Translations under genes and position numbers: made by a program | Origin: Dictyostelium discoideum | Lineage: Eukaryota | NCBI GenBank assembly: GCA_000004695.1 | Contig: CM000152.2 | Coordinates: 736,001-800,000, forward strand | Reading direction: 5' to 3' | Length of the DNA stretch: 64,000 nt | The notes under the pieces: generated by a model | Told to the model about the DNA's origin: nothing | Database searches by the model: none | The model's input: only the letters and a program-made list of their open reading frames with translations | In this document: piece after piece, positions 7,092 through 59,513 of the stretch | Layout of the letters: every line of letters starts with the position of its first letter | How positions within the stretch are numbered: the first letter of the stretch is position 1

Positions 7092-8234
7092 TTATATGAT
7101 TGAACATTTCTTCTTTTTACCAATTGGAGTGAAACCAGTTGGTTTAACAACATGAGCATTGTAAGTGGAGTTGTTATTTGGTTGAATACCACCTTGTAAC
7201 TTTTTAATTTCACTAGCCATAATCATAAATGCTTGTTCTACATTTGCTGATGATTTGGCAGATGTTTCCAAAAATGGAATACCAACAGAGTCGGCATATT
7301 CTCTGGCGGTACTGGTATCGACGATCTTCTTTTCAATGAGATCACATTTGTTACCAACGAGTAAACGAGTTACACTATCACATGCATATCTTTGAATTTC
7401 TTGCATCCATTGTTTGACATTGTTGAAACTGACATGATCAGTGACATCATACACAACGATGATACCATGTGCACCACGATAATATGATGATGTAATTGTT
7501 CTGAATCTTTCTTGTCCTGCAGTATCCCAGATTTGTAATTTAATGATCTTACCATCTAAATTAATTGTACGAATTTTAAAATCAACACCAATTGTTGAAA
7601 TATAACTCTCTGTATATGTATCATCCTGTATTATTATTATTATTATTATTTTTGATTTTTTTGAATTTTTTTTTTTTTTTTTTGATTTTTTTTGAAATTT
7701 TTTTTTTTTTTTTTTTCAAATAAAAGTTTCAAAAAAAAAAAAAAATTATGAAAAAATTGGTGTGGGGAGGAAAAAAAAATTAATATGTGAGGATAAACGT
7801 CTTTTTTTTTTGCTTTTTCTTTTAATAAATTTAATAAATACTTACTGCAAATCTAAGTAATAAACATGATTTACCTACACCACTATCACCGATTAAAAGT
7901 AATTTGAAAAGATAATCGCTAAATTAAATAAAATAATTTTTTTTTTAAAAAAAAAAATAATAATAATAATTTGGTTAGAATACAATTAAATTATATAAAG
8001 ATGATGTGATTTAACTATGAGGAGTTGTTGTAAATACAAACAAAAACCTTGTAATCACAATGAATTAAAGTTGTGAAGGCAACTTAATTGTTTGCAATGT
8101 GTGTGTGTGATTTTTATTTTTTTTATTTTATTTATCTTTTATTTTTTTTTTTTTTTTTAATAAAAAAAGAAAAAAAAAATTAAAGAAAATAAAATAAAAT
8201 ATTAATAAAACTATACTTACTATTCTGGATTCAT
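7092..8234 (-). CDS. rab1: Rab1-family small GTPase, 206 aa, three exons: 8234..8221, 7918..7846, 7625..7092.
   Basis: The spliced product [49 protein letters not shown]...[32 protein letters not shown]...LVGNKCDL...FLETSAK is almost identical to human RAB1A through the G1-G5 boxes. Introns 8220..7919 and 7845..7626 both have GTAAGT donors and ..TTTAG/..TACAG acceptors. The C-terminus reads ...[23 protein letters not shown] element lies about 150 bp upstream of the ATG on the coding strand. Confidence 0.88.
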
Positions 8235-8433
8235 TTTATCTGTTTTATTTTATATTTTTTTTTTCTTTTTTTTTTTTTTAATAAATTTTTTATTTTATGT
8301 GTTAATTTTTATTATGATAAAAAAAAAAAAAAATTGGTTTTTAATAATTTTTTTATTATTTTATTTATTGTGTTGTTGGACTATTACTACAAGTTTATAT
8401 AAATATGGGTGTGAGTGAGCGAATTTTAATATA

Positions 8434-8564
8434 TTAATATATTTGGAAAATTTTATATATATATATTTTATATGGTGTTGAGAAAAAAAAAAAAATAAAA
8501 AAAAAATTAAAAAAAAATGAAAAAAAAAAAAAAAAAATCAAAAAAAAAAAAATTTTCAAAAAAA

Positions 8565-8626
<62 letters not shown>

Positions 8627-8751
8627 AAAAAAAAATTAAGTTGTTTTGATGGAGCCACATAAAAAAATTATTAAAAATATTTGGTGCTGATCAAAGATAT
8701 ACCACTTTTTATTATTATCATTTTTTTATTATTTTTTTTTTTTTATAAAAA

Positions 8752-8793
<42 letters not shown>

Positions 8794-8823
8794 TTCTTCA
8801 TTATTGCATATATTAAGATTAAA

Positions 8824-8859
<36 letters not shown>

Positions 8860-9187
8860 ATAATCATCCAATTTCCAAAAAAAAAAAAAAAAAAAAAAAT
8901 AAAAAAAAAAAAAAAAATAAAAATAAAAATAAATAAAAAAAAAAAAAGAGTAAAGAAAAAAAGAATATGTTACCAGAATATTTATTAATGACGAAGATGA
9001 TGATTTTCCATCTTACCTTGTGGTTAAATTTTTTTTTTCTTAAACTTTTTTTTTTTTTTTTTTTTTATTTTTTTAATAACAACAATATATTTTTTATTCA
9101 GATATATTATTTATTGATTAGAGTAAAAGAAATTGAATTTTAATAATCTTTTTTTTATAAAATATATATATTTTTTTTTAAATATAA

Positions 9188-9223
<36 letters not shown>

Positions 9224-9780
9224 AAAAAATTCTTTGAATGGTTCACTGAAATAACGAATCACAGAAAAAAAAATTTTGAAATTGAAAAAGAGATATGTGT
9301 TTGGATATTTTTTTTAATAACCAAATTAAATTTATTAAAAATTAAAAAAAAAAAAAAAAAAAATTAAACAAAACAAAAGAATAACATGTTATGGTTTCTT
9401 GTTTTTTTTTTCTTTATTTTTTTTCTTTGTTGCCAAAAATTGATAGTTTTTTTTTTTTTTTTTTTGGTAATTGTAATTAAGATATTTATTCCATTTTTTA
9501 AAATATAAAAAATTTAAATTAATAAAAAAAAAAAAAAAATAGTTGGTCGGTTTTATTTTTTTCTTGGTTACAATTCGTATGTCTTAACCTTTCCTCCTCT
9601 TCCTTTAAATTAAAGAATTAATGAGCTGGCCGTTTTGGTATTATTATTTTTAAAATAAAAATTCAAAAATAAAAATAAAAGAAAAAATTCTATGTTTATA
9701 CAATCAAAAATAAAATAAAATTTATTATTAATAGCAAATAATGTATTTAAAAAATTTAATAATTTTCATTGTTTTCAACC

Positions 9781-9811
<31 letters not shown>

Positions 9812-17134: not shown

Positions 17135-18301
17135 TTAAGATTTTAAAGATCTTGCAATTTTTGCGATTTTAACAATTAAATCTTTTTCAGGTATTTTATC
17201 AGTTGAAGAGACGGTAATATCTAGAATTGGAACTCTATAGTTATTATGACTTGGTAATAATTGTAGCATGAGATAGAAAAGACCATCCAAAGCGGATTCA
17301 CCAACAATGACAGCGGCATCTCTAAATTGGACTACTTTATTGTAAGTTTCACCATCGAAATTGGAAGGATGTGGAGAAGGACAAGTTTGTAAATGTTTGC
17401 CATTGGTATTGAATTTCTTTGAAGCATCGTGAATAGTTTCCCAACCCAATTTCAAATGTTCGATACATTGTAACTCTACATCCTTTTTAAAGTTTCTAAT
17501 TTTTTGACCCAATTCAATGCAATCCTTGAGCTCTTTAATCTCAGAGAAAGATTTAATTGAATCCAAGAAAGAGTAATATAAAACCTTTAAACATTTCAAA
17601 GTACGACTACGTAATTCAATCAGTTTAGTTAAATCCTCGGTATCTCTTTCCATCATTGTTATTTCAAATGTTGATGGTGATGATGAAAATAGATCACCTG
17701 GTGATGATGAAAGATTTAAATGATTATTCTTAATTTCAAATGATGATGCTGCTCTAATTGGTAATGGTCTATGACTATGTTGATTACCACCAATTGGTAA
17801 TTGTGGTGTAGATGATGATGATGTTGAACTTGAAATTGGTTTTGGTCTAGTTGGTGTTGTTATATTTAAATTAGATGATGATGAATTTGCTGTACTACTA
17901 TTTGGTATTATTACATTTCTAGATGGTGTATTTTGTTGTTGTTGTTGTTGTTGTTGTTGTGATTGTTGTTGTTTTGAAATTAATTGTGACATTTGTGAAA
18001 TTGATGATGAAACTGATGGATTTGATGTTGAAATAATTGAACCATTTAAATTATTACTGCTATTACTTGTTGGTAAAACTGGTAAAGGTCTATGACTATT
18101 ATATTTTTCTGGTGATGTTGCCTCTATATTATTATTATTATTATTATTACTATTTACATTATTATTTTCAATTGAAATTGGTTTTATAAATGATGAACCT
18201 GAAATTGTAACTGATCTTGATGGTACTGCACCACTCTTTTGTGTATCACTTAATGTAAGATCTGTCATTGCTCTACTTGTTTTTACTAATGTTTCATTTG
18301 A

Positions 18302-18357
<56 letters not shown>

Positions 18358-18632
18358 ATGTACTATCATTACTTGATGATAAAAAAGTTCTTAAAGGTAC
18401 AATTGGTTTAGAAGTTGGTGAAGTTGAAACTATATTTAAATTTGATTGTGTTGGAGTTGGTGGTTGATTTGGTGTTGATGATGACATTGTTAATGAAGAA
18501 TTTGAAGGTGATGATGAAAGTTGTTTATCTAATTGATTTTGTTGATATTGTTGTAAAAGTGAAGATGGTAATGAAAATGGTGGAATTGGTACGCCTGTAG
18601 CTTTTCTTGGTGTAGTTGGTGGTGATGGTGAC

Positions 18633-18680
<48 letters not shown>

Positions 18681-18903
18681 TGATGAGAACTTAAAACTGG
18701 TGCAGGTTGTTGATATTGTTGTTGTTGTTGTAATCTTGAGAATAAAAACGATCCACTATGTTTTAATGGTGGAGTTGTTTTACCTGGTGATGATGGCATT
18801 AATGATCCTGAACTAACATTATTTGCTGATTGTATTATTAAATTACTATTATTACTATTATTATTACTATTATTACTATTATAATTATTATTAATATTAT
18901 TAA

Positions 18904-18938
<35 letters not shown>

Positions 18939-21528: not shown

Positions 21529-22300
21529 TTTTTTTTTTTTTTCAATTTTAAAAAAAAATAAAAAAATAAAATAAAATAAAAAATAATTGATAGGGTGTGG
21601 AGTTTTGTGTGAAGTTTTATTCTAATAAAAAGACTTTATTGCAATTTAAAAGGTCAAAAAAATTTTATTAGAACTTTTGAATTCGCTAAAAGTTGTTTAT
21701 TTATGTATGTATGTATGTGGTTTGGTACAGTGTGTGTGTGTGTGTGTGTGTTGGTTGTGGTGGTATATTTAGTTGAAAAAATAATAAAAGTTAAAAATAA
21801 TAATCTATTTTTTGTGTATGAGGACCTTATGTGAACCTTTTTTTTTTTTTTTATTTTTTTTATTTTTTTTATTTTTTTTTAGTTTGATTTTTTTTTTTTT
21901 TGTTATTTCTTTTTTTTTTTATTATTTTATGTCTAATGATATAGTGCAAACCAAGTTAAAAAAATAAAAAAAAAAAAAAAAAAAAATAAAATAAATTTTT
22001 TTTTTTTTTTTTTTTCGAAATTTTGTGGAGAGCGTTAAATAAATTCAATAGTGTTGGTGCCAAAAATATAAAAAAAAAAAAAAAAAAATTTGATAATCGA
22101 GATCCCAATTCCACAAAATACGAATTGCCACTTAAACTCCCCGTCAAAAAAAGAAAAAAAAAGAAAAAAAAACAAAACAAAACCAGAACAATATGTCTAC
22201 AATGCTAAAAAAAAAAAGAAAAAAAAAAAAAAATAAATAAATAAAAAAAAAAATAATAATAATAATAATGATAAAAAAGGAAAAAAAAAATAAATAATAT

Positions 22301-22333
<33 letters not shown>

Positions 22334-22543
22334 TGATCCATTGGTTGTGATAAATTCGTTACAGTGCGTTATGATAAATATAAAACTTCGAGGTTGATTG
22401 TATGGTTTGATGACAAAAAAATATTAGAAAAACTTTTCGAACCACAAGAAGATAATGATTTAATAAAACAATTGGATCAATTGACTCTTATGTAACTTTA
22501 AATAATGTGTAAATAAAAAAAAGACTTATTTTTTTAAGTCAAT

Positions 22544-22743
22544 ACCACTTTTTTTATTTTTTAATTTTTTAATTTTTTAATTTTTTAATTTTTTTAAGTC
22601 AATACCACTTTTTTTATTTTTTTATTTTTTAATTTTTTAATTTTTAAAATTCATAAATCATAGATATAAATAAATTTAAACATGAATAATACAGGTAATC
22701 GTCTCGATTTAAACATGAATAATACAGGTAATCGTCTCGACAT
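22544..22743 (+). repeat. Two adjacent tandem duplications. A ~62-bp unit is repeated twice at 22544-22660. A 33-bp unit is repeated twice at 22678-22743 and spans the start codon of the 180-aa ORF.
   Basis: Direct reading: TTAAGTCAATACCACTTTTTTTATTTTTTAATTTTTTAATTTT.. occurs twice in tandem, and AAACATGAATAATACAGGTAATCGTCTCGA.. occurs twice in tandem. Confidence 0.8.
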
Positions 22744-23224
22744 GGATGGTTCAAGGACTCCAGTAACACGTGGTAAAGCAAAAAAGAATAGCATTAATGC
22801 TTACCTGATAATAATAATCATGCTTTCGTTATTATCAGCTTTCTTAGTCCAACATTCTATGAATTTAAACAAACAACTTCAACAACAAACAACCAAGACA
22901 AATGACTTTGCATACGAGCTTTTAACACTATTGATCTCGAAACACACCAACGACATATCAGGTAACGATAACAATGTTCATAGTGGCAGTGGGGATATTA
23001 ATATACAAAATATGATAGATGAAATTGCAAATGAAAACACGAGAAAGATTTTACTGGATGCAATAAACAGTGGTAATTTATCTGGGTTAAAAGCAGCAAT
23101 TTCAAAAGCCAATGGTCAAGTTAAACACACTGTCGATAAGGCTGTTCATCAAGTTGGAAATGTTGCTAATAAAGCAGGAAAACAATTAGAAAAAGAAGTA
23201 AAGAGATTTTTCAAGAGATTTTAA
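22682..23224 (+). CDS. Predicted small single-pass membrane protein, 180 aa, with atypical codon usage.
   Basis: The ATG lies within a 33-bp in-frame tandem duplication (MNNTGNRLDLN / MNNTGNRLDMD). A hydrophobic helix reads YLIIIIMLSLLSAFLV. Many G/C-ending codons (CTC, GAC, AGG, AGC, CTG, TCG, GTC, ACC, GGC, GGG) are unusual for Dictyostelium nuclear genes. AATAAA motifs lie downstream. Confidence 0.4.
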   Translation: MNNTGNRLDLNMNNTGNRLDMDGSRTPVTRGKAKKNSINAYLIIIIMLSLLSAFLVQHSMNLNKQLQQQTTKTNDFAYELLTLLISKHTNDISGNDNNVHSGSGDINIQNMIDEIANENTRKILLDAINSGNLSGLKAAISKANGQVKHTVDKAVHQVGNVANKAGKQLEKEVKRFFKRF

Positions 23225-23839: not shown

Positions 23840-25003
<1,164 letters not shown>

Positions 25004-25602: not shown

Positions 25603-25636
<34 letters not shown>

Positions 25637-25845: not shown

Positions 25846-26716
25846 GTCACAATGTAATTGCTTTGTAAATGTTTTTACACTGCAGTAGTGATGCTGCAAA
25901 AAAAAGGGTAAGACCAAGCGATTATAAATATATCCCAGAACACTCTAGAAACGATATTGCAAATATTTTAGAAAGAGCTATAGCATCAGAAGAGGAAAAT
26001 CTCGAAAAAATCGAAAAAACAAAAGAAAGACTTTCACGCGCAAGGAAGGAAATTGAAGATCTTAACGCCAGAAATGAAAGTATTCAAGAATTAATTTCAG
26101 AAAATGACAAAAATTTAAAGAATACAAAAGAAGAAATTGAACGTTTAAAAAAAGAAAAAGATGAATTAAAAAAAGCAAAGGGAGAATTCGAAGCTTCTTT
26201 AAAAGAAATTGAAGTAAAAACAGCTTTCTTGGAGGATGTTAGTCAACATATCTTCAAAGAAGCACTCCGAGATCCAGCAGTGATGTGGGGTAAATTAACT
26301 TATGGAGGTGTGATCCCAACTAGCGAAGAAAACAGACAATTTTATTTAAATCTTGTCCAACATTTCGAAAAGAAAAATTATAGAATTTCCGAACTCAGAG
26401 AAGAATTGGAGTCTTTTCCAATTAATAAATTATTGGAAAAACTCCATATTGGTGATTCCAAAACAGAAGAAACAACCGATTGCATTGTCCCAGAGTCATC
26501 TGCTATAGTGCCACCACAACCAATAACTCCAACCACACCAATTATTACCGAGTTCGAAAAAGACAATTAATAAGTAACAAAATAAACTAACCACTTAGGG
26601 TTTTAAATTTTTTTTAGAGTGGTTTAAAATATCTCTTGTATTAATATTAATATCGTAAATGTAATTGCATTGTAAATGCAGTGTAAAATTTTACACTGTG
26701 TAGTGACGCTCAAAAA
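25846..26716 (+). repeat. Direct repeats of ~55-65 bp (25846-25903 and 26650-26716) bracketing the 233-aa ORF. The second copy contains a perfect 20-bp palindrome CAGTGTAAAATTTTACACTG.
   Basis: ..AATGTAATTGC.TTGTAAATG..TTTTACACTG(C/T)(A/G)GTAGTGA(T/C)GCT.CAAAAAAAAG is present at both sites. The related CACT.CAGTAG..GTGA motif also occurs in the TIR arms. Confidence 0.7.
25869..26570 (+). CDS. Predicted 233-aa coiled-coil protein with atypical codon usage. Its N-terminal codons are encoded by the direct-repeat unit.
   Basis: The ORF runs ATG 25869 to stop 26570. The heptad-rich middle reads EENLEKIEKTKERLSRARKEIEDLNARNESIQELISENDKNLKNTKEEIERLKKEKDELKKAKGEFEASLKEIE. It uses codons that are rare for Dictyostelium (CGC, AGG, GCC, CTC). 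An AAG|GTAAGA donor-like site sits at 25898. Whether this is a host gene or part of a repeat element is unresolved. Confidence 0.4.
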   Translation: MFLHCSSDAAKKRVRPSDYKYIPEHSRNDIANILERAIASEEENLEKIEKTKERLSRARKEIEDLNARNESIQELISENDKNLKNTKEEIERLKKEKDELKKAKGEFEASLKEIEVKTAFLEDVSQHIFKEALRDPAVMWGKLTYGGVIPTSEENRQFYLNLVQHFEKKNYRISELREELESFPINKLLEKLHIGDSKTEETTDCIVPESSAIVPPQPITPTTPIITEFEKDN

Positions 26717-27062
26717 AAAAGTAAAAAAAGTTGAATTTTTTTTGATAAAATCATGAGATATTTTTGATAAAAATCAAATTGTGGAAAATTTATGCTCTAA
26801 AATATATAAAAACAAGAATGCCAAACAGTGATCCAAGTTTATGTTATAATTGTTCATCCATTTGTGAACACACTCAAACTTTCTCGAGCCGTGGTGTAGA
26901 TGTAGATCGTTGTCTTAATTTCAAAACCAATTACAACAAAAATTATTACAACAAAAAGTAATCAACATAATGCTGAATAACAACACCAACAAAAATAGAT
27001 TCAAAATCAAACAAACAAAATCAAAACCAATCATTATAAATAAAACTACTCTTATATAATAC

Positions 27063-27105
<43 letters not shown>

Positions 27106-27243
27106 TAAAATTAAAATTGGAAAATGATAAGTTTTTTAATTTTACATTTCGATATTTTTTATATTGTTTTTATTTTTTTTGATTTGTCAAAATGCCCAAA
27201 ATAATTAAAATCTGAATTAATATAATAATTGATTTGATTTTAG

Positions 27244-27274
<31 letters not shown>

Positions 27275-28058
27275 ATAATAACAATAGAATTGATTTGTGG
27301 TAATTCAACAAATTTTACAATAAAACCAATTATTCTTTTGGACCATAAATAGCTTAATTATAATATTTATTTAAATTAATATTTATTATATATATATATA
27401 TTTCAACTTTTGATTCTGGAAATACAACTTGGGCAATAAAAGAAATTAATAAAAATATGATATCCAGAAAAACAAGAAAATAAACAAAACCAAGTATTCA
27501 GTGAAAAGGATTTTATACAATTATTTAATTCCTGTAATAATATGAAGTTGTTTCTTGTGAATCTATTTCATTTTTTTTTTTTTTTTTTAAGTATTTATTT
27601 AAGTTTTCTACAAGATAAAATGGTGTCAATGTTCTGTCTTGAATGCTTCAAAAAAATAATAAAAAAAAAATAGGTTAGTTTATTTTTTGAATTTAATAAT
27701 TTATCATTCATTTTTTGTAATTGTTTTTGAAGAACAACCAGAGAGAATATATCTTTAATAAAAAAAAAAAAACCAAAAAAATTTGAATGTGAGTTTATTT
27801 TTTACAGCGGAAGACACAACAGATAATATGGAAAAATTAAAAAAAAAATTGAAAATTAGTCAATAGATATTAAAATTTTAAGGTGTGCCCAAGCAACTGG
27901 AGCTCTACTTGCGGTTAATCTATTATTATTTTTTATTTCTCCAACTTTTTTTGATGGGGGGTCATTTTGCCTCCAAAAATATTATTATTTTACTTTTAAT
28001 AAAAAAAAAAACATTTGAGACACAAAAGATATTTTATTTTTTTATTTTTTAATTTAAT

Positions 28059-28090
<32 letters not shown>

Positions 28091-28203
28091 TGGCATTATT
28101 TAATTAAATTAAATAGTTGAGTGATTTTTGAGTTGAATCCATTTTATTTTATAAAAAAACCAACAATATTTAACAAAGATTAAAAACCAAACTTTTTTAA
28201 TGA

Positions 28204-28640
28204 AATGGATGAGAAGGAGAGTAAGAATTTTCAGAGACATTGGTTTTCTCAATGGATCAATAACCAAATATTGAAACTAGTTATTTATAGGTAATAAAAA
28301 TGTTTTAATAGATAGAATTATGATAAAATTGGAAGTTGACAATGGTGGAGGATGGAATTACAATTCATCAAATACCCAAATTTACATTGAGTGATGATAG
28401 CTTTATAAAATTAGAGATTTTTGAATTTGTTAAAAACAACGCCCAATCATTGATTTCACCCGACCTAAATTAATTCAATCGATGAGGATTTAGTTGCTTA
28501 TGATGGGAATTATGCTTCTATTATATATTTACCTTCAAAACCAAATAAAAAATTCAGTTTTGGAGAGTTGGATTTCCTAGAAAATCAATATCCATAGCTG
28601 TAATACTTTAAGATGGATACTTACAAAAGAAAAAAAAAAA
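28204..28640 (+). pseudogene. Frame-broken remnant of a protein-coding gene (gene fragment or pseudogene).
   Basis: Local A+T is lower than the surroundings. Protein-like segments sit in three different frames: MDEKESKNFQRHWFSQWINNQILKLVIY, RIMIKLEVDNGGGWNYNSSNTQIYIE, DSFIKLEIFEFVKNNAQSLISPDLN, and FNSIDEDLVAYDGNYASIIYLPSKPNKKFSFGELDFLENQYP. Each ends in a stop, and there is no credible splice pattern. Confidence 0.35.
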
Positions 28641-29368
28641 AAAAAAAAAAAAATTTAAGAATAAATGATTCTAAATTATTCAGTGTCATTACTTTAAAGT
28701 TAAATTTGGATAATTAAAATTTTTTTTTAAAAAAAACAAATAAAATAATCAAGCTTTAAATGAATTGTTTTTTTTTGATTTAAAAAAAAAAAAAAATAAA
28801 AAATAATAAAAAATAATAAAAAAAAAGTATACTATTTAATTTATTTGTACAAATATATTTTTTTTTATTTTATTTTTTTATTTTTTATTTTTTTTTCAAA
28901 AAAATAAATAAAATAAATAAATGAAAATAAAGACCTTTATAATTATTTAAATTCATTTTTTAATATTTTTTACCATTTTGTGGTTGTTTGGGGTTATAAT
29001 TAAAAAAAAAAAAAATAACTTATAAAATTTTTATTTTGTGGTTATTTTTAAAATTTTATTTATAAAAAAAAAAATAAATAAATTCTAAAAATAACCAAAA
29101 AATAAAAATTATAAAACTTAATTAAGTTAATAAATTCTAAAAATAACCACAAAATAAGAATTTAATAAATCAATTTTTTTTTTTTATTTATTAAAAAAAA
29201 AACAATCAAAAAAAAACCAATTTTTTTTTTTATTTATTTTTTCTATTTTTTTATAACACAACTTCACCAACATTCTTGGATGGTAAATAAAAAAAAAAAT
29301 ATAAATGGAATATTATAAAATTTTTAAAAAATAAATAACGAAGATAAAAAAAGTTTGTTTAATTGGTT

Positions 29369-29401
<33 letters not shown>

Positions 29402-29814
29402 TTTTTTTAGCCACCAACATTTTCGTTTATTATTACTACAAAATCCAAGTAATATAATTAATATGTAAATTATATTTTTAATTTTAGAAATTGCTGGTTT
29501 TTCATTTCCTCAAGAAAAAGGTAATTATTATTATTTTTTTTTTTATATTTATAAATTTATTTAAATATAAAAAAAATCACATTAATTTAACACATTTAAT
29601 TTTTTTTTAAATTTAAATTTAGTAATTAAGTTAACCATTGATAAAATTTCCAAGTGGTGACTCTTCATTAGTTGCAGTTGGTTCCTCACAACAAAATTAG
29701 TATCTTTTAGGTAGTATTCAAGTTTGATCATATATATATATGGATTATTCCAAGTAATATATACAATTAACAATATTGTTTAATGTAATTAACTTTTCAA
29801 CCTATATAATGATC

Positions 29815-30025
29815 GTTAGTACACTTTTGTGAAGAAATAATTTTTTTACATTGATGTTACCAATGCTAACAATTATTAATGTTTTGTATATTTGAGATGA
29901 TAATCACCAGTAATTAAACCATATTTAACTTTTGGTATCATCTCAAATAAACAATTCATTAAAAATTGTTAACATTCGAAAACATCAATGTAAAAATGTT
30001 ATTTCCTCTCAAAAGTGTTCTAGCC
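29815..30025. repeat. Long imperfect palindrome: a ~90-bp stem and ~30-nt loop hairpin with decaying identity further out.
   Basis: TAGTACACTTTTGTGAAGAAATAATTTTTTTACATTGATGTTACCAATGCTAACAATTATTAATGTTTTGTATATTTGAGATGATA pairs with TATCATCTCAAATAAACAATTCATTAAAAATTGTTAACATTCGAAAACATCAATGTAAAAATGTTATTTCCTCTCAAAAGTGTTCTA at roughly 85-90% complementarity, with G:T-compatible mismatches. The loop is ATCACCAGTAATTAAACCATATTTAACTTTT. No target-site duplication is evident. Confidence 0.75.
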
Positions 30026-30300
30026 ATCCTTTTATAAGTTTAAAAGTTAATTATAAATAAATGGTATTGTAATTGATAATAAATTATTATTTTCATTTCT
30101 CATCAATTCTACCACCACCACCACAAGCAAACACAAGCACTGCTATCTGAAAATCAAATTGGAAAATTACCAACTTAAAAAAAAAAAAAAAAAAAAAATA
30201 AAAATAATAAGCTAAATAAAAAATATTTAAATTTTTAAAGATATAAAAAAAAAAAATGGAATATATCTGGATTTTTTTTTTTTAAATTTAATTTTTAATT

Positions 30301-31048
30301 TTATTCAATGAATTCATCCAACTTATCGTTGTCGATAGGCTCTTCATCTTCTTCTTCTTCTTTCTCAACTTCTTGAACTTCAGATTCAATATTATTATAA
30401 TTTGAATCTTCATCATCTTCATTGTCATCATCATTATTATTATTATTAATATTATTATTATTATTATCAGCATGATTTTCACTTTGTTGTTGAACATCTA
30501 AACTATTTAAAATTTCTTCATCATCTTCCAATTTATTTAATTCATCCTCTTTGGTAATGATTACAACTTTTTTATTACGTTTTCTACTTTTTTGTTTTTC
30601 ATTTTCATCAATCATAATTTCATCATCATCATTATCATCACCATCACCTTGAGTATCTTTTTGTTGTGTTTTATCATTGTCATTATTTTCATTTTCATTT
30701 TCATTTTCATTTTCATTTTCATTTTCATTTTCATTTTCATTTTGATTTTCCACCTCTTCATCATCATCATCATCTTCAATTTCATCACTTGGTCTATCAG
30801 CTTTATTATAATAAAATTGTTTATTTGCTGGAATATAATGTGCAAATGAATAATCTGTTGAGAAAGAACTTGGATTCATTGAATAAGTACCATCAGCACG
30901 TGAATGCTCATATTGATTTGATTTATCACCAATTACCAATAAATCTGGTAATGGATAAACAGACATTGCATGATCATAATTCCAATAAATTGGTTTATCT
31001 TCTAATGTTAAATTACATAAATGTGAATTACTACAAATTAATTCAATT

Positions 31049-31097
<49 letters not shown>

Positions 31098-32775
31098 CAA
31101 AAAATTGGTAAATAATAAATAATAAATAAATTAATAATAAATTAATAATTATTTTTTAAAACTTACATGTTGAGAAATATCACATGATTGTGAAGGTTCT
31201 AAAATACAATGTCTTCTCATTTTATTTGTTAAATCATCTCTAAATATTATAATTTCTTGAGAACAGTATCTAATTCTACATGGATTAGTTGTAAAGGTTG
31301 ATTTTGGAATTAAAGAAATGAAATCCTTTATGAAAACATTTGAAATTGGGAACTTTGGTAAAATATTTAATAAGGAACCAGTTGGGTCAGTTGGACCAGG
31401 TACGAAAATGAATTGAGTGAATTGATGTATATTTGGATACTTTTGAATTACCATTGCAAGTTGATTAAAATACTTTTTCAATTGATATTGTGTACCATTG
31501 ATCAAAGGATGCTCAGTGAAATTACCCATCAATATCATTGCAAATGGTGGACAATCTTTATAACCACCAAATAAATAATCTAATCTTTCCATAACCCTTT
31601 CCGAATCTAACCAAACATCTGATAGAAATAATATTGAATTATCCTCTTTCTCTTTTTCATACTTTATCAATTGTTCCATCGTCTTTTTTTGTGGTCTTTC
31701 TCCAAACATATCAATATTTTGTAAAAATTTTAATGTTTCACATCTTTCTTCAGTTGGTGGTAATTGAATTTTCTTTTTTTTTTTTTTTTTTCATTAAAAA
31801 TATATATATATATATTAATATTATTTATTATTCAATTATTTATTGCTATTTATTTATAAACTTACATCAGCAATGAAAACACCATCAATAAATTCACCAG
31901 ATGCTTGAATGATTGAATTTATAGTGACTATACCAAATTCGAATTTAGCTTTTGAAATATCAATTTTAACATTTGTATTTAAATCTTCTATATAGAATTG
32001 ATCCTCTTCAATTTGTGATATTGTACCAAGTACATGTTTTCTACCAGTATTACCAAGTAATGAACTTAGTGGTGTAATAGTTTGATATTCATTCTTTAAT
32101 TTATCAGATGCTAAAACTGGTGTTGAAAAATAATCATTTCTTTCAGTTCTTTGTAAAACTTTTAAATATCTTTTTCTATATAAATCTGATTTCGAATTTG
32201 ATGATCCATGTAATGATCTATCAAAATTTTCACTTCTAAAATTTATTTATTGTGTGTGTGTGTATATTAATATTAATATAACACAATTTCTTTTATATAC
32301 ATATGTAAATAATTTTAAAAAACTTACTTTATAAATTGTTTTGAATTTGAATCAAAATTAAATAATGGTGTATTAAATGCATCAATTACTTTTAATGCTT
32401 CTTTTTCAATTGCATCTGAACTATTAATTGTATCAATTAATTTAAAACATCCTTCAATTGTTTGTAAATCTATTATATTATTGTTCACTTTATATTTATG
32501 TATATGTATGTGTATACGTGTGGGAAAAAAAAAAAAAAAAAAAAAATAATTATTATTATTATAATTTTATAAATATATTTATTTATTTATTTTAAATTAT
32601 AATTAAACATACATTGACTTTTATCTAAATTTTTTAATAAATTATCAATTAATTGAGTTATATCATAACCTTCATTCTTTATTCTATTAATAATACATTT
32701 CATTGCATCTGCTTTAATTGAAAAACCAGTTAATGAAAATGATTTAGTAATTTGCTTCTTCCATTGTATATCCAT
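30301..32775 (-). CDS. pole2: DNA polymerase epsilon subunit 2 (POLE2/Dpb2) homologue, ~676 aa, five exons: 32775..32613, 32469..32328, 32235..31866, 31772..31167, 31050..30301.
   Basis: All exons align to human POLE2. Examples: [18 protein letters not shown] against LRGLLLRGEAIKYLTEAL; FLSDVWLD; FVPGPTDP; [19 protein letters not shown]; [12 protein letters not shown]. Donors are GTATGT/GTAAGT and acceptors ..TAATAG, ..TTTTAG, ..AAAAAG. Splice phases (1, 2, 0, 0) are consistent. There is a long acidic C-terminal extension containing (NE)9. Confidence 0.88.
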
Positions 32776-43474: not shown

Positions 43475-44415
43475 ATGCATTGGTCAAAAGCACAAACTAA
43501 AGGAGATATTGCTTTTGAAGGCATTAGATCACATACAGCAACAGTAGTAGGTCACAAGATATATGTATTTGGTGGGTCTGATATTCAAGATAGATTCAAT
43601 GATTTATTAATTTTGGATACAAGTAGGTTAAAATAAATATATACTAGATAAAACATTAATAGTAGGGTTTATGTTAACCATTCATTCATTCATTCATTCA
43701 TTCACTCATCCATTCATTCATTCATATATTTTTTAGAAACAATGTTTTGGCATAAGCCAAAGACAACAGGCGCAGAGGGTTGTATTCCTAATCCTCACAG
43801 AGCACACTCTTCAACATTAGTAGATCATAGATTATTCATATTTGGTGGCGGTGATGGTCCAAATTATTTTAAAGATCTTTATATTTTAGATACAAGTAAT
43901 GTATATTCATTTTTTATTTTTCACTAAATTATTAAGATTAATTATCTTTACTAATATATCCCTCCCTCCCTTCTTCACTCCCTTTTTCATAAAACATTAT
44001 TAAACTATTATTTATTATTTTAGATACATTAACATGGACAAAACCAACAACATTAGGTAATGGACCAGGACCAAGAAGGGCACATACAGCAAATTTAATT
44101 GGTAAATTAATATATATTTTTGGAGGTGGTGATGGTAATAAAGCATTGAATGAAGTTTATGTATTGGATACAGAAACATTGACATGGACTTATATAAAAA
44201 CAACTGGTGCTATACCAGGTAGTAGAGGTTATCACTCTAGTGTATTATTATCTAATGGTAGAATAGGTATTTTTGGTGGTTCAGATGGAAATGATTGTTT
44301 TTCAGATTTTTATGTTTTTGATACAAGTATTTATTATTATAATTTTATTAATTATTAATTATTAATTATATTATATTTATAAATAGATAGGATAAACAAT
44401 TTACTAACCTATTAA

Positions 44416-44487
<72 letters not shown>

Positions 44488-44824
44488 AATAGATAATTCA
44501 TCTTGGAGTTTATTCCCAGTTTCAAATCCATCACCATTATTATCACAATCATGCGTTACAATTGGAAAAACAATTGTTGTATTTGGAGGTCATAATGCAA
44601 ATGATTATATAAATTCATTAAAGTTTTTTAATCTTGACAAATTTCAATGGGAAGAACAAACATGTTCTGGTATATTACCTCTAAGTAGAGGTTATCATTG
44701 TTGTTGTTTTGTAGATCATAGATTATTTGTTATTGGTGGTTACGATGGCTCTCAATGTTTTTCTGACGTTCAAATTTTAGATTTAGGTGTTTTATCTTAT
44801 TTAGAGTTACATCAAAATAAATAA
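43475..44824 (+). CDS. Kelch-repeat beta-propeller protein (six kelch motifs), ~313 aa, four exons: 43475..43622, 43737..43895, 44024..44326, 44493..44824.
   Basis: Repeated kelch signatures are present (..H.....G.KIYVFGGSDG...NDL.ILDT.., W.....G..P..R..H). All three introns are phase 1 and sit immediately after the LDT/FDT of successive repeats (GATACAA|GT each time), with donors GTAGGT, GTAATG and GTATTT. Intron 1 carries (TTCA)n and intron 3 carries (ATT)n. The exon frames agree with the three track ORF fragments. Confidence 0.85.
44411..44478. repeat. (ATT)n microsatellite in kelch intron 3. Another (AAT)n lies at 44851-44912 just downstream of the gene.
   Basis: Direct reading. Confidence 0.9.
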
Positions 44825-44844
44825 TCAAAATAGATAATAATAAT

Positions 44845-44905
<61 letters not shown>

Positions 44906-45168
44906 TTAATAACAATAATAATAATACTAATAATAATAATAATTTATTTGCATCAATACCAAAAAAAAAAAAAAAAATACTGCTACTATAATTGAAAAAA
45001 AAAAAAAAAAAAAACTAAACAACTATTTATTAAAATGATGTAAAAATAAAGATGATAATAATAATTTAAAAAAAAATAAAAAAAAAATAAAATAAAAAAA
45101 AAAAACAAATAAAATAAACAACTATAAACGAGAAATAATTTTTTTTAAAAAAAAAAAAGAATATCAAC

Positions 45169-55723: not shown

Positions 55724-56353
55724 TATATCTGAGTGTGTGCGGTTTTTTTTTTTGTTTTTTTTTTTTTTTTTTGGTTGATTGATTTATTGATTTGTTTTTG
55801 TGTGTGGTATGGGGAAAATAAAAATTTTATGCCTTTTGGAGTAACGTGAAAAAAAAAAAAAATAAAAAAAAATAAAAAAATAAAAAAAAAAATTAAAAAA
55901 TAAAAAATTAAAAATAAAAAAAAAAAAAAATATCTTCTTTCCCCAAACATTGTTTTATTTGGAATAGTTTATTTATTTTTCTTTTATCATTGTTATTTTT
56001 TTATTTATTTATTTTTTTTTTTATTTTTATTTTTTTTATTTCTTTATTTTTTTTTTTTCTTTAACTTGGAAATCTTTGAATTTCAAACCAAACAGTTTAT
56101 AAAAACTGAGGACTAAAACACAAAGATAATACCATTTTAAAAAAAATAAAAAAAATAAAAAAAATAAATAAAAATAGAAAAATAAAAATAAAAAGCATAA
56201 TATTTCTATTTTGTTTCTTGAGGTGCTTATGTGTTAAAAGTGAGTATGTTTCAGTGCAAATAAAAAAAAAAAAATAAAAAAAATAAAAATAAAATAAAAA
56301 TTAATTTTTTTTTAAAAAAAAAAAAAAATTAAAAAAAAGAGTTTTTTTTTTTT

Positions 56354-58464: not shown

Positions 58465-59179
58465 GTGGCCATCAACTCGGCAAAAGAAAATGAAGTCGAA
58501 AAAAAAAAGTTTAAATCCAAAATATCTCACCAAAAAAAAAAAAAAAATTAAAAAAAATTAAAAAAAAAAAAAAAAATGAAACCAAGCGAAAATTATTTTC
58601 ACAAAAAAAAAAAAAAAACAATAATTGGGTCAATGGTATCTAGATGTAAAAAATAAAAAAAAGTAAAAAAAAAAAGTAAAAAAACAAAACAAAAGAAAAT
58701 AAAAAAACAAAATAACTAAAACAATAATCAGTTGGCTCTTTCTTAGTTTTGCACACCACTTTTAAAAGTAATTATTTTATTTTTATCTTAAATTTATTCC
58801 CACACATTTTGATTTTGTTTTTTTCTTTAATTTTTTTTTTTATTTTTAAAATTTGTTTTTTAACCCCCCACACACTGATTAAACAATTAAAAATAAATAA
58901 AAAAAATAAAAAAAAACATTTAAAAATAGAAAAAAAAAAAAATAAAAATAAAAAAAAAAAAAAAAATAAAAAAAAAAGTTAAACTATTTAATTTTTTTTT
59001 TTTTTTTTTTTTTATAAATAAAAATTAATTAATTATTTATAAAATTTAATTATACAACTATCTGTACTCATTATTTAAATAATTATTTTAAATTAAATAT
59101 CATTTCAAAAAAAAGAGAAAAATGTAATAATTGACTCACTAAGTTTTTATTTTTTTTATTTTTTTTTTTTTTTTTTAAA

Positions 59180-59244
<65 letters not shown>

Positions 59245-59513
59245 TTATTTATTATTTTTTTTGTTTAAGACAATAATAATAATAATAAAAATAATAATAA
59301 ACAAATTTTAAAAAAAAATTTAAAAAATAACTAAACACATCTTTTTTATTATATTATTATTTCATTTTTTTTTTTATTTTTTTTAAAAATTTTAAACTTC
59401 ACTTAATTTATTAACACTTTTTTTTTTATTTTCAATACAATATATTTTTTTCTTTTTTTTTTTTTTTTTTTTTTTTTGTCAAACTAAAAAAAAAAAAAAA
59501 AAGACTAGACAAA

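Follow-up and report, generated by a model that had tools for sequence, protein, structure and literature searches.

The stretch of Dictyostelium discoideum AX4 chromosome 3 analysed here (64 kb, chromosome positions 736,001–800,000; hereafter the window, to whose numbering coordinates refer unless the chromosome or another genome is named) contains a 3.7-kb intergenic spacer that is flanked by the convergent 3′ ends of DDB_G0278363 and of the gene encoding DNA polymerase epsilon subunit B. Within this spacer lies an inverted repeat of 268 bp, at 29786–30053, which corresponds to about 765,786–766,053 of the chromosome (Table 1). An earlier note, made from the letters of the window, had described a near-perfect hairpin at 29815–30025 in a gene-free spacer. 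The spacer is gene-free in an annotated sister assembly, in which no gene is called between 26570 and 30301, and an inverted repeat is indeed present at the place given, which turned out to be only the inner part of the whole. It is a well-delimited structure of a known general kind that is absent from the searchable catalogues, and we describe its form, its distribution among close relatives and the readings that these allow.

Table 1 Features in and around the inverted repeat (positions in the window)
Feature	Position	Strand	Evidence or remark
DDB_G0278363, left neighbour, convergent	25869–26570	+	Translation is an exact match to XP_642315.1, D. discoideum AX4
T-run 29370–29399 and extension, then AGCCACCAAC; candidate plus-strand start region, AG at 29409–29410	29367–29457	+	Sequence
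First copy of the 13-mer TCCAAGTAATATA	29444–29456	+	Ends at the breakpoint of homology between AX4 and L008
Segment without a counterpart in L008	29458–29944		Breaks in blastn collinearity at 29455 and 29945
Second copy of the 13-mer TCCAAGTAATATA	29749–29761	+	25 nt left of the 5′ arm
Left outer pseudo-stem, outside the repeat	29753–29785		Pairs with 30054–30088 in minimum-free-energy folds; fold of 29750–30090
5′ arm, 117 nt, GC 22%	29786–29902		Arm pairs; nhmmer arm profile 29788–29901, minus, E = 2.7e-28
Central spacer, 33 nt, terminal loop if folded	29903–29935		Gap between the arm pairs; small secondary stem in minimum-free-energy folds
3′ arm, 118 nt, GC 23%	29936–30053		Arm pairs; nhmmer arm profile 29937–30051, plus, E = 4.7e-31
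Two pair-breaking substitutions, C in the window and A in GCA_054883475.1	30025, 30029		In the 3′ arm; 2 of 5 substitutions in 21 kb
Right flank, GC-richer block (29%); candidate minus-strand start G at 30174	30054–30174		Base identities; collinear in L008
A22 run, a T-run on the minus strand, then AAG; resembles the start motif of primary microRNAs	30177–30198	−	121 nt upstream of the 3′ arm
DNA polymerase epsilon subunit B gene, last exon	30301–30966	−	Open reading frame; stop at 30301, 247 nt from the 3′ arm

The repeat is made up of two collinear pairs of inverted arms, 29786–29858 with 29981–30053 (73 nt, 85% identity) and 29857–29902 with 29936–29981 (46 nt, 85%), which together give arms of 117 and 118 nt around a central spacer of 33 nt and a hairpin of up to about 335 nt as folded. 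'Near-perfect' proved too strong a term for it, as the core carries 18 mismatches and one 1-nt insertion or deletion (indel) in about 118 positions, an identity of about 83–84%. Folded as RNA, 29780–30060 reached −105.2 kcal/mol on the plus strand and −113.4 kcal/mol on the minus strand, compared with −34 to −41 kcal/mol for dinucleotide shuffles (z = −17.7 and −17.4 for the two strands; 0 of 200 shuffles were as stable). When 280-nt segments were folded along both strands of the entire 64 kb, the four best of 1,822 folds all overlapped the repeat (best −100.7, next unrelated site −76.5, mean −37.3, standard deviation 12.7 kcal/mol). Because these four folds overlap it and no shuffle came close, the inverted repeat is real and is not a by-product of A/T richness. 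The earlier judgement that it was unlikely by chance even in A/T-rich DNA is thus borne out: with z of about −17.5 on both strands, it is the strongest fold in the window.

A longer segment, 29750–30090, paired out to about 29753/30088 and gave −120.7 kcal/mol (plus) and −120.9 kcal/mol (minus), that is, −0.35 kcal/mol/nt, compared with −0.37 to −0.40 kcal/mol/nt for 29780–30060. This additional pairing had been taken for similarity that continues outward. However, the outer stretches, 29753–29785 and 30054–30088, are only 52% identical arm to arm, whereas the one on the right has 95% identity to the orthologous stretch of the related genome L008 (see below), and the pairing is therefore chance complementarity of A/T-rich DNA and not homology. 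The description of the sequence as moderate in G+C content (GC) held up: the arms have a GC of 22–23% and the adjoining unique flanks of 25–29%, and the next flanks drop to 6–10%.

The mismatches between the arms are rich in transversions (13 of 18). Those that would leave a G:U pair number only 2 of 18 on the plus strand and 3 of 18 on the minus strand, so that the compatibility with G:U pairing claimed for them did not withstand counting, and there is no preference for either strand. No perfect helix is longer than 16 bp. When 19 defects are scattered at random over 118 positions, the longest run averages 19 and reaches 16 or more with P = 0.74; as the observed helix is no longer than random scatter gives, no protected duplex of the kind expected for a microRNA (miRNA) is visible. 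Many 21-nt segments have 19–20 of their 21 bases paired.

For comparison we used the syntenic loci of six other genomes. One of them, D. discoideum GCA_054883475.1 (L001), is 99.7% identical to AX4 over 21 kb. The five more distant loci were reached through a protein search with the neighbouring diphthine–ammonia ligase (DPH6), which led to the contigs of dictyostelid orthologues: 'D. discoideum' GCA_054859355.1 (L008; ligase identity to AX4 94%), 'D. cf. discoideum' GCA_054859205.1 (L009; 93%), two D. citrinum genomes (L010 and L011; 85% and 84%) and D. dimigraforme (L012; 81%). All five keep the order of the ligase (DPH6), rhodanese-like and polymerase-subunit (pole2) genes, and L008 and L009 are 93% identical to each other. 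Among the seven genomes compared, both arms are present only in the AX4 window and in the near-identical L001, which carries the whole repeat; L008 has the 3′ arm only, and L009–L012 have no arm. Conservation, which the earlier note had proposed to check in other isolates, thus holds for the closest one and ends there.

In L008, positions 17368–17473 are 88.9% identical to 29945–30053 of the window and collinear with its right flank, and the 5′ arm and the central spacer are absent. The segment that has no counterpart, 29458–29944, consists of an A/T-rich stretch, a left GC island (29616–29785, 170 nt, GC 25%), the 5′ arm, the central spacer and 9 nt of the 3′ arm; in its place L008 has 153 unrelated A/T-rich nucleotides. 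Alignment of 29458–29615 with L008 gave 53% identity, which is what random sequence gives. By eye, the 153-nt filler might pass for a decayed 5′ arm, but Smith–Waterman alignment did no better than with shuffles (z at most 1.1), and we rejected this candidate. The L008 region folds like its own shuffles (−33.9 kcal/mol, z = −0.15). On the left, homology ends at 29455, the block 29409–29457 having 85% ungapped identity between AX4 and L008; on the right, 30054–30174 has 85% ungapped identity to L008, and 30113–30174 is 87% identical to L009.

A three-way comparison of the two AX4 arms with the solo arm of L008, over 106–107 core sites, gave identities of 83.2% between the AX4 arms, 87.9% between the 3′ arm and L008 and 78.3% between the 5′ arm and L008. 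At 12–13 sites L008 shares the base of the 3′ arm and not that of the 5′ arm, at 1–2 sites it shares the base of the 5′ arm and not that of the 3′ arm, and at 7 sites the two AX4 arms have a base in common that L008 lacks, which makes the 5′ arm the diverged copy of the three. Had the resident arm been copied after the split and evolved at equal rates, the first two counts should be equal, and we rejected this possibility on 12–13 versus 1–2. We infer instead that the repeat predates the AX4/L008 split and that L008 lost the 5′ arm and the central spacer. This is preferred over an origin of the 5′ arm from a diverged paralogue because the innermost 13 bp pair perfectly, and in register, across the L008 breakpoint, and because palindromes provoke deletions that remove one arm and the centre. 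The duplication would then have occurred near, or somewhat before, the AX4/L008 split, since the divergence between the arms is of the same order as that of non-coding DNA between AX4 and L008: ungapped identity in the neighbouring non-coding DNA is 82–89%, and the arm, at 88.9%, is no outlier.

More recent changes are seen in the comparison with L001, in which two of the five substitutions over 21 kb lie within the 3′ arm. The stem is better paired with the A/A allele than with that of the window, the minimum free energy falling from −120.7 to −125.1 kcal/mol (plus) and from −120.9 to −126.6 kcal/mol (minus). By comparison with L008, which has A at 30025 and at 30029, and with the 5′ arm, which supports A at 30029, the two C residues of the window are derived and pair-breaking. 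The share of two in five was not taken as evidence of hypermutability of the hairpin (P = 0.002 if the two are independent, 0.06 if they are one event). Together, the evenly spread, transversion-rich mismatches, the lack of strand asymmetry and of a protected duplex, the recent pair-breaking changes and the half or complete absence from every relative beyond near-identical strains all fit a repeat that drifts without selection for pairing.

Neither blastn nor six-frame tblastn nor an nhmmer arm profile found a further copy of the arms in the window or in the five syntenic loci (22 kb each); within the window, blastn showed no second copy, nor did six-frame tblastn of 29600–30180 against the rest of it. 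'Single-copy' here refers to these 64 kb and these five loci only, and it is for this DNA that the blastn test for a dispersed family suggested earlier is answered. An apparent diverged copy at 22500–22723 (64% over 245 nt) proved to be an A/T low-complexity alignment. No coding origin of the arms was found: the six-frame tblastn within the window was empty, and a 42-amino-acid open reading frame (ORF) across the 3′ arm had 0 matches among 1.84 billion representative proteins and none in Pfam. There was no transposase-like ORF among the nearby ORFs. Rfam gave zero matches in the window at the gathering threshold, and a permissive search returned only generic long plant MIR hairpins (best MIR6217, 31 bits against a cut-off of 110). 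The two perfect stem blocks, searched as patterns, gave 3 matches in bacteria, against a chance expectation of about 2, and no match in viral contigs. No direct repeat is present at 29785/30054, in agreement with the earlier report of no visible target-site duplication, although a palindromic TA or TTAA duplication would be hidden by the termini, TAATTAA...TTAATTA. In all 64 kb there are only two copies of the 13-mer TCCAAGTAATATA, at a distance of 305 nt from each other; the pair may be the duplicated target of an insertion of roughly 292 nt (29457–29748), or a chance coincidence.

The repeat is likewise absent from the searchable D. discoideum miRNA tables of three surveys (Meier 2016; Liao 2018; Edelbroek 2024), which used miRDeep2, ShortStack and a Dictyostelium pipeline; Avesson 2012 lay outside the search and leaves a small residual chance of listing. 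None of six perfect-stem 9-mers occurs in the miRNA tables of Liao 2018, which give sequences and coordinates in DNA letters (the listed miRNAs, searchable as DNA strings, served as the positive control) and whose only chromosome 3 entries are at 3.66 and 3.74 Mb. No hairpin 9–11-mer occurs in the Edelbroek 2024 supplements, which are searchable in RNA letters and in which the positive control, mir-1177, was found. None of 27 published mature sequences, taken from Meier 2016 Table 2 and a part of Liao 2018 Table S1, maps to the repeat within 4 mismatches, and the D3 sequences of Meier 2016 Table 2, apparently small RNAs derived from thug-S, a DNA transposon that is a source of multicopy miRNAs, match no part of the window at up to 4 mismatches. 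The curated long non-coding RNA (lncRNA) tables of Rosengarten 2017 contain no model between CUFF_2114 (759.7–760.7 kb) and CUFF_2117 (770.3 kb), no entry naming DDB_G0278363, no coordinate beginning 7655–7660 and none at 765.5–766.1 kb of chromosome 3. A full-text literature search with hairpin 14–15-mers gave no match.

Measured against published thresholds, the repeat gives a mixed picture. Its folding energy, −0.35 to −0.40 kcal/mol/nt, is below the −0.2 kcal/mol/nt required of miRNA precursors (Liao 2018, after Kozomara & Griffiths-Jones). Its length of 268 nt is two to three times the typical one, as precursors in Amoebozoa are mostly of 75–125 nt, with those of D. discoideum reaching about 190 nt, and hairpins above 200 nt are read as newly evolved (Edelbroek 2024). 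Its arms, with 83–85% matches and one 1-nt indel, are within the LIRBase limits of at least 80% matches and at most 10% indels, and at 117 and 118 nt they fall short of the arm length of more than 400 nt in the same catalogue. As for transcription, mapped start sites of primary miRNAs are a G after up to 26 T, 116–281 nt upstream of the 5p arm, and mir-1177 has this architecture at 116 nt (Liao 2018, PMC6161686). T-runs are found on both sides of the repeat (Table 1), and on the minus strand there is no AATAAA between 30174 and 29561. Because the window has a run of 20 or more A or T roughly every 0.9 kb, such start motifs are weak evidence and not diagnostic, and we discarded the promoter-like T-runs on both sides as a diagnostic sign.

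Our favoured reading, which we hold with belief and doubt in about equal measure, is that the repeat may be a lineage-restricted, neutrally decaying relic of an inverted duplication, and that any hairpin RNA made from it would be incidental. A single inverted duplication of resident spacer DNA would have taken place at about, or somewhat before, the split of the AX4-type lineage from its nearest sampled relatives, and the arms would then have drifted apart without selection for pairing. The sister lineage represented by L008 would have lost the 5′ arm and the central spacer by a palindrome-provoked deletion, which left a solo arm, and AX4 would recently have gained the two pair-breaking substitutions. 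An RNA polymerase II (Pol II) transcript across the repeat, from either strand, would form a hairpin of about 270 nt, and Dicer-like cuts could then yield heterogeneous 21-nt RNAs; these would be by-products and not the reason for the existence of the sequence.

Several points speak against this reading of the repeat as a decaying relic. Absence from the miRNA lists shows only that a locus failed strict miRNA criteria or was of low abundance in those studies. The GC of the arms and flanks, 22–29% against 6–10% nearby, is typical of transcribed or exon-like DNA, and the minus-strand T-run is followed by a G 121 nt upstream, as at mapped primary miRNA starts. The 3′ arm has changed less in AX4 (1–2 sites) than the solo arm has in L008 (7 sites), a difference that may point to constraint on the arm as long as it is paired but is not significant. 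Genuine D. discoideum miRNAs, too, are as a rule not conserved (Edelbroek 2024), so that non-conservation is compatible with function. Finally, the preference for a loss of the 5′ arm in L008 over its gain in AX4 is itself something that we infer.

The first alternative to be weighed is an unannotated hairpin-RNA or proto-miRNA gene, which we regard as possible but on balance rather unlikely. A Pol II transcript would fold into a hairpin of roughly 270 nt and be diced by DrnB and/or DrnA to 21-nt RNAs; the most plausible transcript would be that of the minus strand, beginning at the G that follows the T-run (30174) and ending at an AATAAA near 29556, and the locus would be young and lineage-specific, of the kind from which Dictyostelium miRNAs arise and vanish. 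The folding energy lies well past the cut-off, many 21-nt windows are paired at 19–20 of 21 bases, the distance of 121 nt from T-run and G is close to the 116 nt of mir-1177, and the minus strand is free of AATAAA from 30174 to 29561. The GC of 22–29% also exceeds published values (lncRNAs 17%, untranscribed spacers 13%, intergenic mean about 13–14%). A hairpin above 200 nt would suit a newly evolved precursor, the majority of D. discoideum miRNAs lack conservation even in D. firmibasis, and whole modules come and go between the two (Edelbroek 2024); moreover, about 30% of D. discoideum 21-nt RNAs are of intergenic origin (Liao 2018, PMC6161686). Yet the locus is missing from the searchable tables of all three miRNA surveys and has no curated lncRNA, the arms show neither a G:U strand bias nor a protected duplex, the derived substitutions of AX4 break pairs, the hairpin is two to three times longer than the usual 75–125 nt, and the promoter-like motif, given the frequency of such runs in the window, is nearly uninformative. 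Doubtful, in our estimate, is also a hairpin-RNA gene caught between birth and decay, in which an inverted duplication within a spacer transcript would have made a Dicer substrate of about 270 nt in the AX4-type lineage only, with the one-armed state preserved in a sister lineage.

A transposon origin appears improbable. The element could be a decayed miniature inverted-repeat transposable element (MITE) or foldback, or else two dispersed copies head to head, the 5′ arm (and the left GC island) coming from a diverged paralogue. As a paralogue should be, the 5′ arm is far more diverged from the 3′ arm and from the L008 arm than those two are from each other; 29458–29944 includes, in addition, some 170 nt of GC-richer DNA that bears no relation to the 3′ arm, the 13-mer direct repeat (29444 and 29749) brackets part of this segment, with its first copy ending at the homology breakpoint, and the A/T-rich termini would mask a palindromic TA or TTAA duplication. 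What tells against a transposon is that there is no second arm copy in the DNA compared and no transposase-like ORF nearby, and that the 3′ arm of L008 is contiguous with the right flank at 95% identity across the boundary, which is therefore not an insertion junction. In addition, no MITE family was found in the accessible D. discoideum literature, the DNA transposons (Tdd, DDT, Thug) account for only 1.5% of the D. discoideum sequence, the D3 sequences of Meier 2016 Table 2 have no match in the window, and the window has no tRNA genes, the targets of many D. discoideum retroelements. The earlier note had not considered the repeat an obvious fresh MITE, which is supported; its fallback of an old MITE or foldback relic is weakened by L008, which keeps the 3′ arm with the right flank and lacks the 5′ arm, and by the lack of a further copy in the window and the five syntenic loci. 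A whole element would be either present or absent at an intact empty site, but L008 is one-armed and offers no clean empty site; on this comparison, insertion of a whole element is contradicted, and a MITE is unlikely, though a head-to-head pair of dispersed copies might still be the source. More improbable still is a cis element of the polymerase subunit gene, which would be part of a long 3′ untranslated region or a termination or insulator structure between the convergent genes. The repeat does lie 247 nt downstream of the stop, on the strand of read-through transcription, and the right-flank block 30113–30174 is retained in three lineages. However, the stop is overlapped by an AATAAA and followed, within 15 nt, by two ATTAAA (on the plus strand, TTTATT at 30300 and TTTAAT at 30294 and 30287), so that the mRNA probably ends before the A-run at 30177–30198, and five related genomes keep the gene without the hairpin.

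The repeat was compared with several known systems. It resembles the DrnB-dependent miRNA genes of D. discoideum (mir-1176, mir-1177, mir-7097) in being an intergenic, lineage-specific hairpin that passes the energy criterion and has, on one strand, a G after a T-run some 120 nt upstream; unlike them, it measures 268 nt (about 335 nt folded) rather than 75–190 nt, lies outside the searchable catalogues and has no known mature 5p/3p pair, protected duplex or strand bias. The long Amoebozoa precursors dfi-mir-1190 as well as ppo-mir-1226, of more than 200 nt, are also long hairpins confined to one lineage and were read as a stage of miRNA birth (Edelbroek 2024), but those have sequenced small RNAs and 0–1 duplex mismatch, whereas the repeat has about 16% mismatches, evenly spread. 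With hairpin-RNA loci, such as those of Drosophila and of LIRBase, it shares arms that are at least 80% matched with few indels and would be a Dicer substrate if transcribed; its 117-nt arms are far below the 400 nt that LIRBase requires. Plant proto-miRNA genes arise, in the MIR161/MIR163 model, from inverted duplication of a target gene. The repeat would have a like origin by inverted duplication followed by decay of the arms; unlike the plant loci, it has no parent gene in the window or the syntenic loci at the translated or nucleotide level, and the ORF of its arm has no protein relatives. MITEs and foldback transposons are, as it is, short, A/T-rich and made almost wholly of two inverted arms, whereas it shows no visible target-site duplication, is single-copy in the DNA compared and has one arm that is orthologous resident DNA in L008. 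A foldback of skipper fragments on chromosome 2 is another D. discoideum inverted repeat, one that was proposed as a long-hairpin source of 21-nt RNAs; it is retrotransposon-derived, with a stem of about 320 bp, a 900-nt loop and cloned small RNAs (Hinas 2007), whereas the chromosome 3 repeat is not repeat-derived within the DNA compared.

Some further features of the intergenic spacer were observed. The gene-free stretch 26570–30300, of 3.7 kb, seems long for a compact genome, although this is an impression only. It holds GC-richer islands without long ORFs at about 26800–26950, 27800–27990 and 28150–28600, which could be decayed exons or unannotated RNAs and of which parts are collinear with L008 and L009. 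At 29003–29056/29132–29185 there is an A/T-rich inverted repeat of 54 nt (89%), which overlaps a 52-nt tandem pair at 29072–29175 (83%); both are built around the motif GTGGTTATTTTTA / TAAAAATAACCAC. The place of the AX4 hairpin, downstream of the polymerase subunit gene, is taken in L009 by a lineage-specific gene of 298 amino acids (longest ORF 204 amino acids), called at 17754–18905 on the minus strand of the locus; compared as nucleotides or in translation, this gene matches nothing in the AX4 window or in the other syntenic loci. Between close relatives, turnover of this spacer is rapid. Over 21 kb, the window and GCA_054883475.1 differ by 11 gap openings and 5 substitutions, and nearly all differences are in the length of A/T homopolymers (at 25603, 27064, 29370, 30177, 31052, 34954, 43408 and others), which may be real polymorphism or assembly noise.

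Elsewhere in the window, the other long inverted repeats, at 58878–59260, 55849–56055, 21838–22330 and 44410–44923, are pairs of A-runs with T-runs or of TTA/TAA microsatellites and are not comparable with the one described here. In the last of these, (TTA)n and (TAA)n microsatellites at 44410–44490 and 44843–44923 surround a Kelch-like exon, and the resulting inverted repeat of 81 nt and 95% identity is a trivial effect of low complexity. Two tandem duplications lie at 22525–22745, just upstream of and across an apparent start codon, one with a unit of about 60 nt that contains AAGTCAATACCACTTTTTTTATTTTT and the other with a unit of 33–34 nt, TTTAAACATGAATAATACAGGTAATCGTCTCGA.

Of the neighbouring genes, DDB_G0278361, placed at chromosome 3:760,609–760,860 in a table of Rosengarten 2017, fits the window ORF 24609–24860. 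An upstream exon of the DNA polymerase epsilon subunit B gene matches PF04042, and the gene is called at 7337–9801 of the L001 locus. Protein queries with single exons of this gene (the low-complexity last exon and a 186-amino-acid exon at 31149–31709) brought up no dictyostelid proteins, unlike the query with the neighbouring ligase gene, which has a single exon; in a word-indexed search, a query that consists of one exon can miss the annotated protein of the organism itself. Look-up of a 221-amino-acid ORF gave no match, and a metagenome scan found only loci of 39% identity (L003 and L004).

If the repeat is only a drifting palindrome, it would provide, for an extremely A/T-rich genome, a dated example of the rise of an inverted duplication, its decay and the loss of an arm. 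Were it transcribed and diced, it would be an unannotated, lineage-specific hairpin-RNA locus in a species with only about 29 known miRNAs, and would bear on the speed and route of miRNA gene birth in Amoebozoa. Should 21-nt RNAs arise from it, the lineage with two arms and the one with a single arm would make a natural pair for following the gain and loss of miRNA-like genes in this group.

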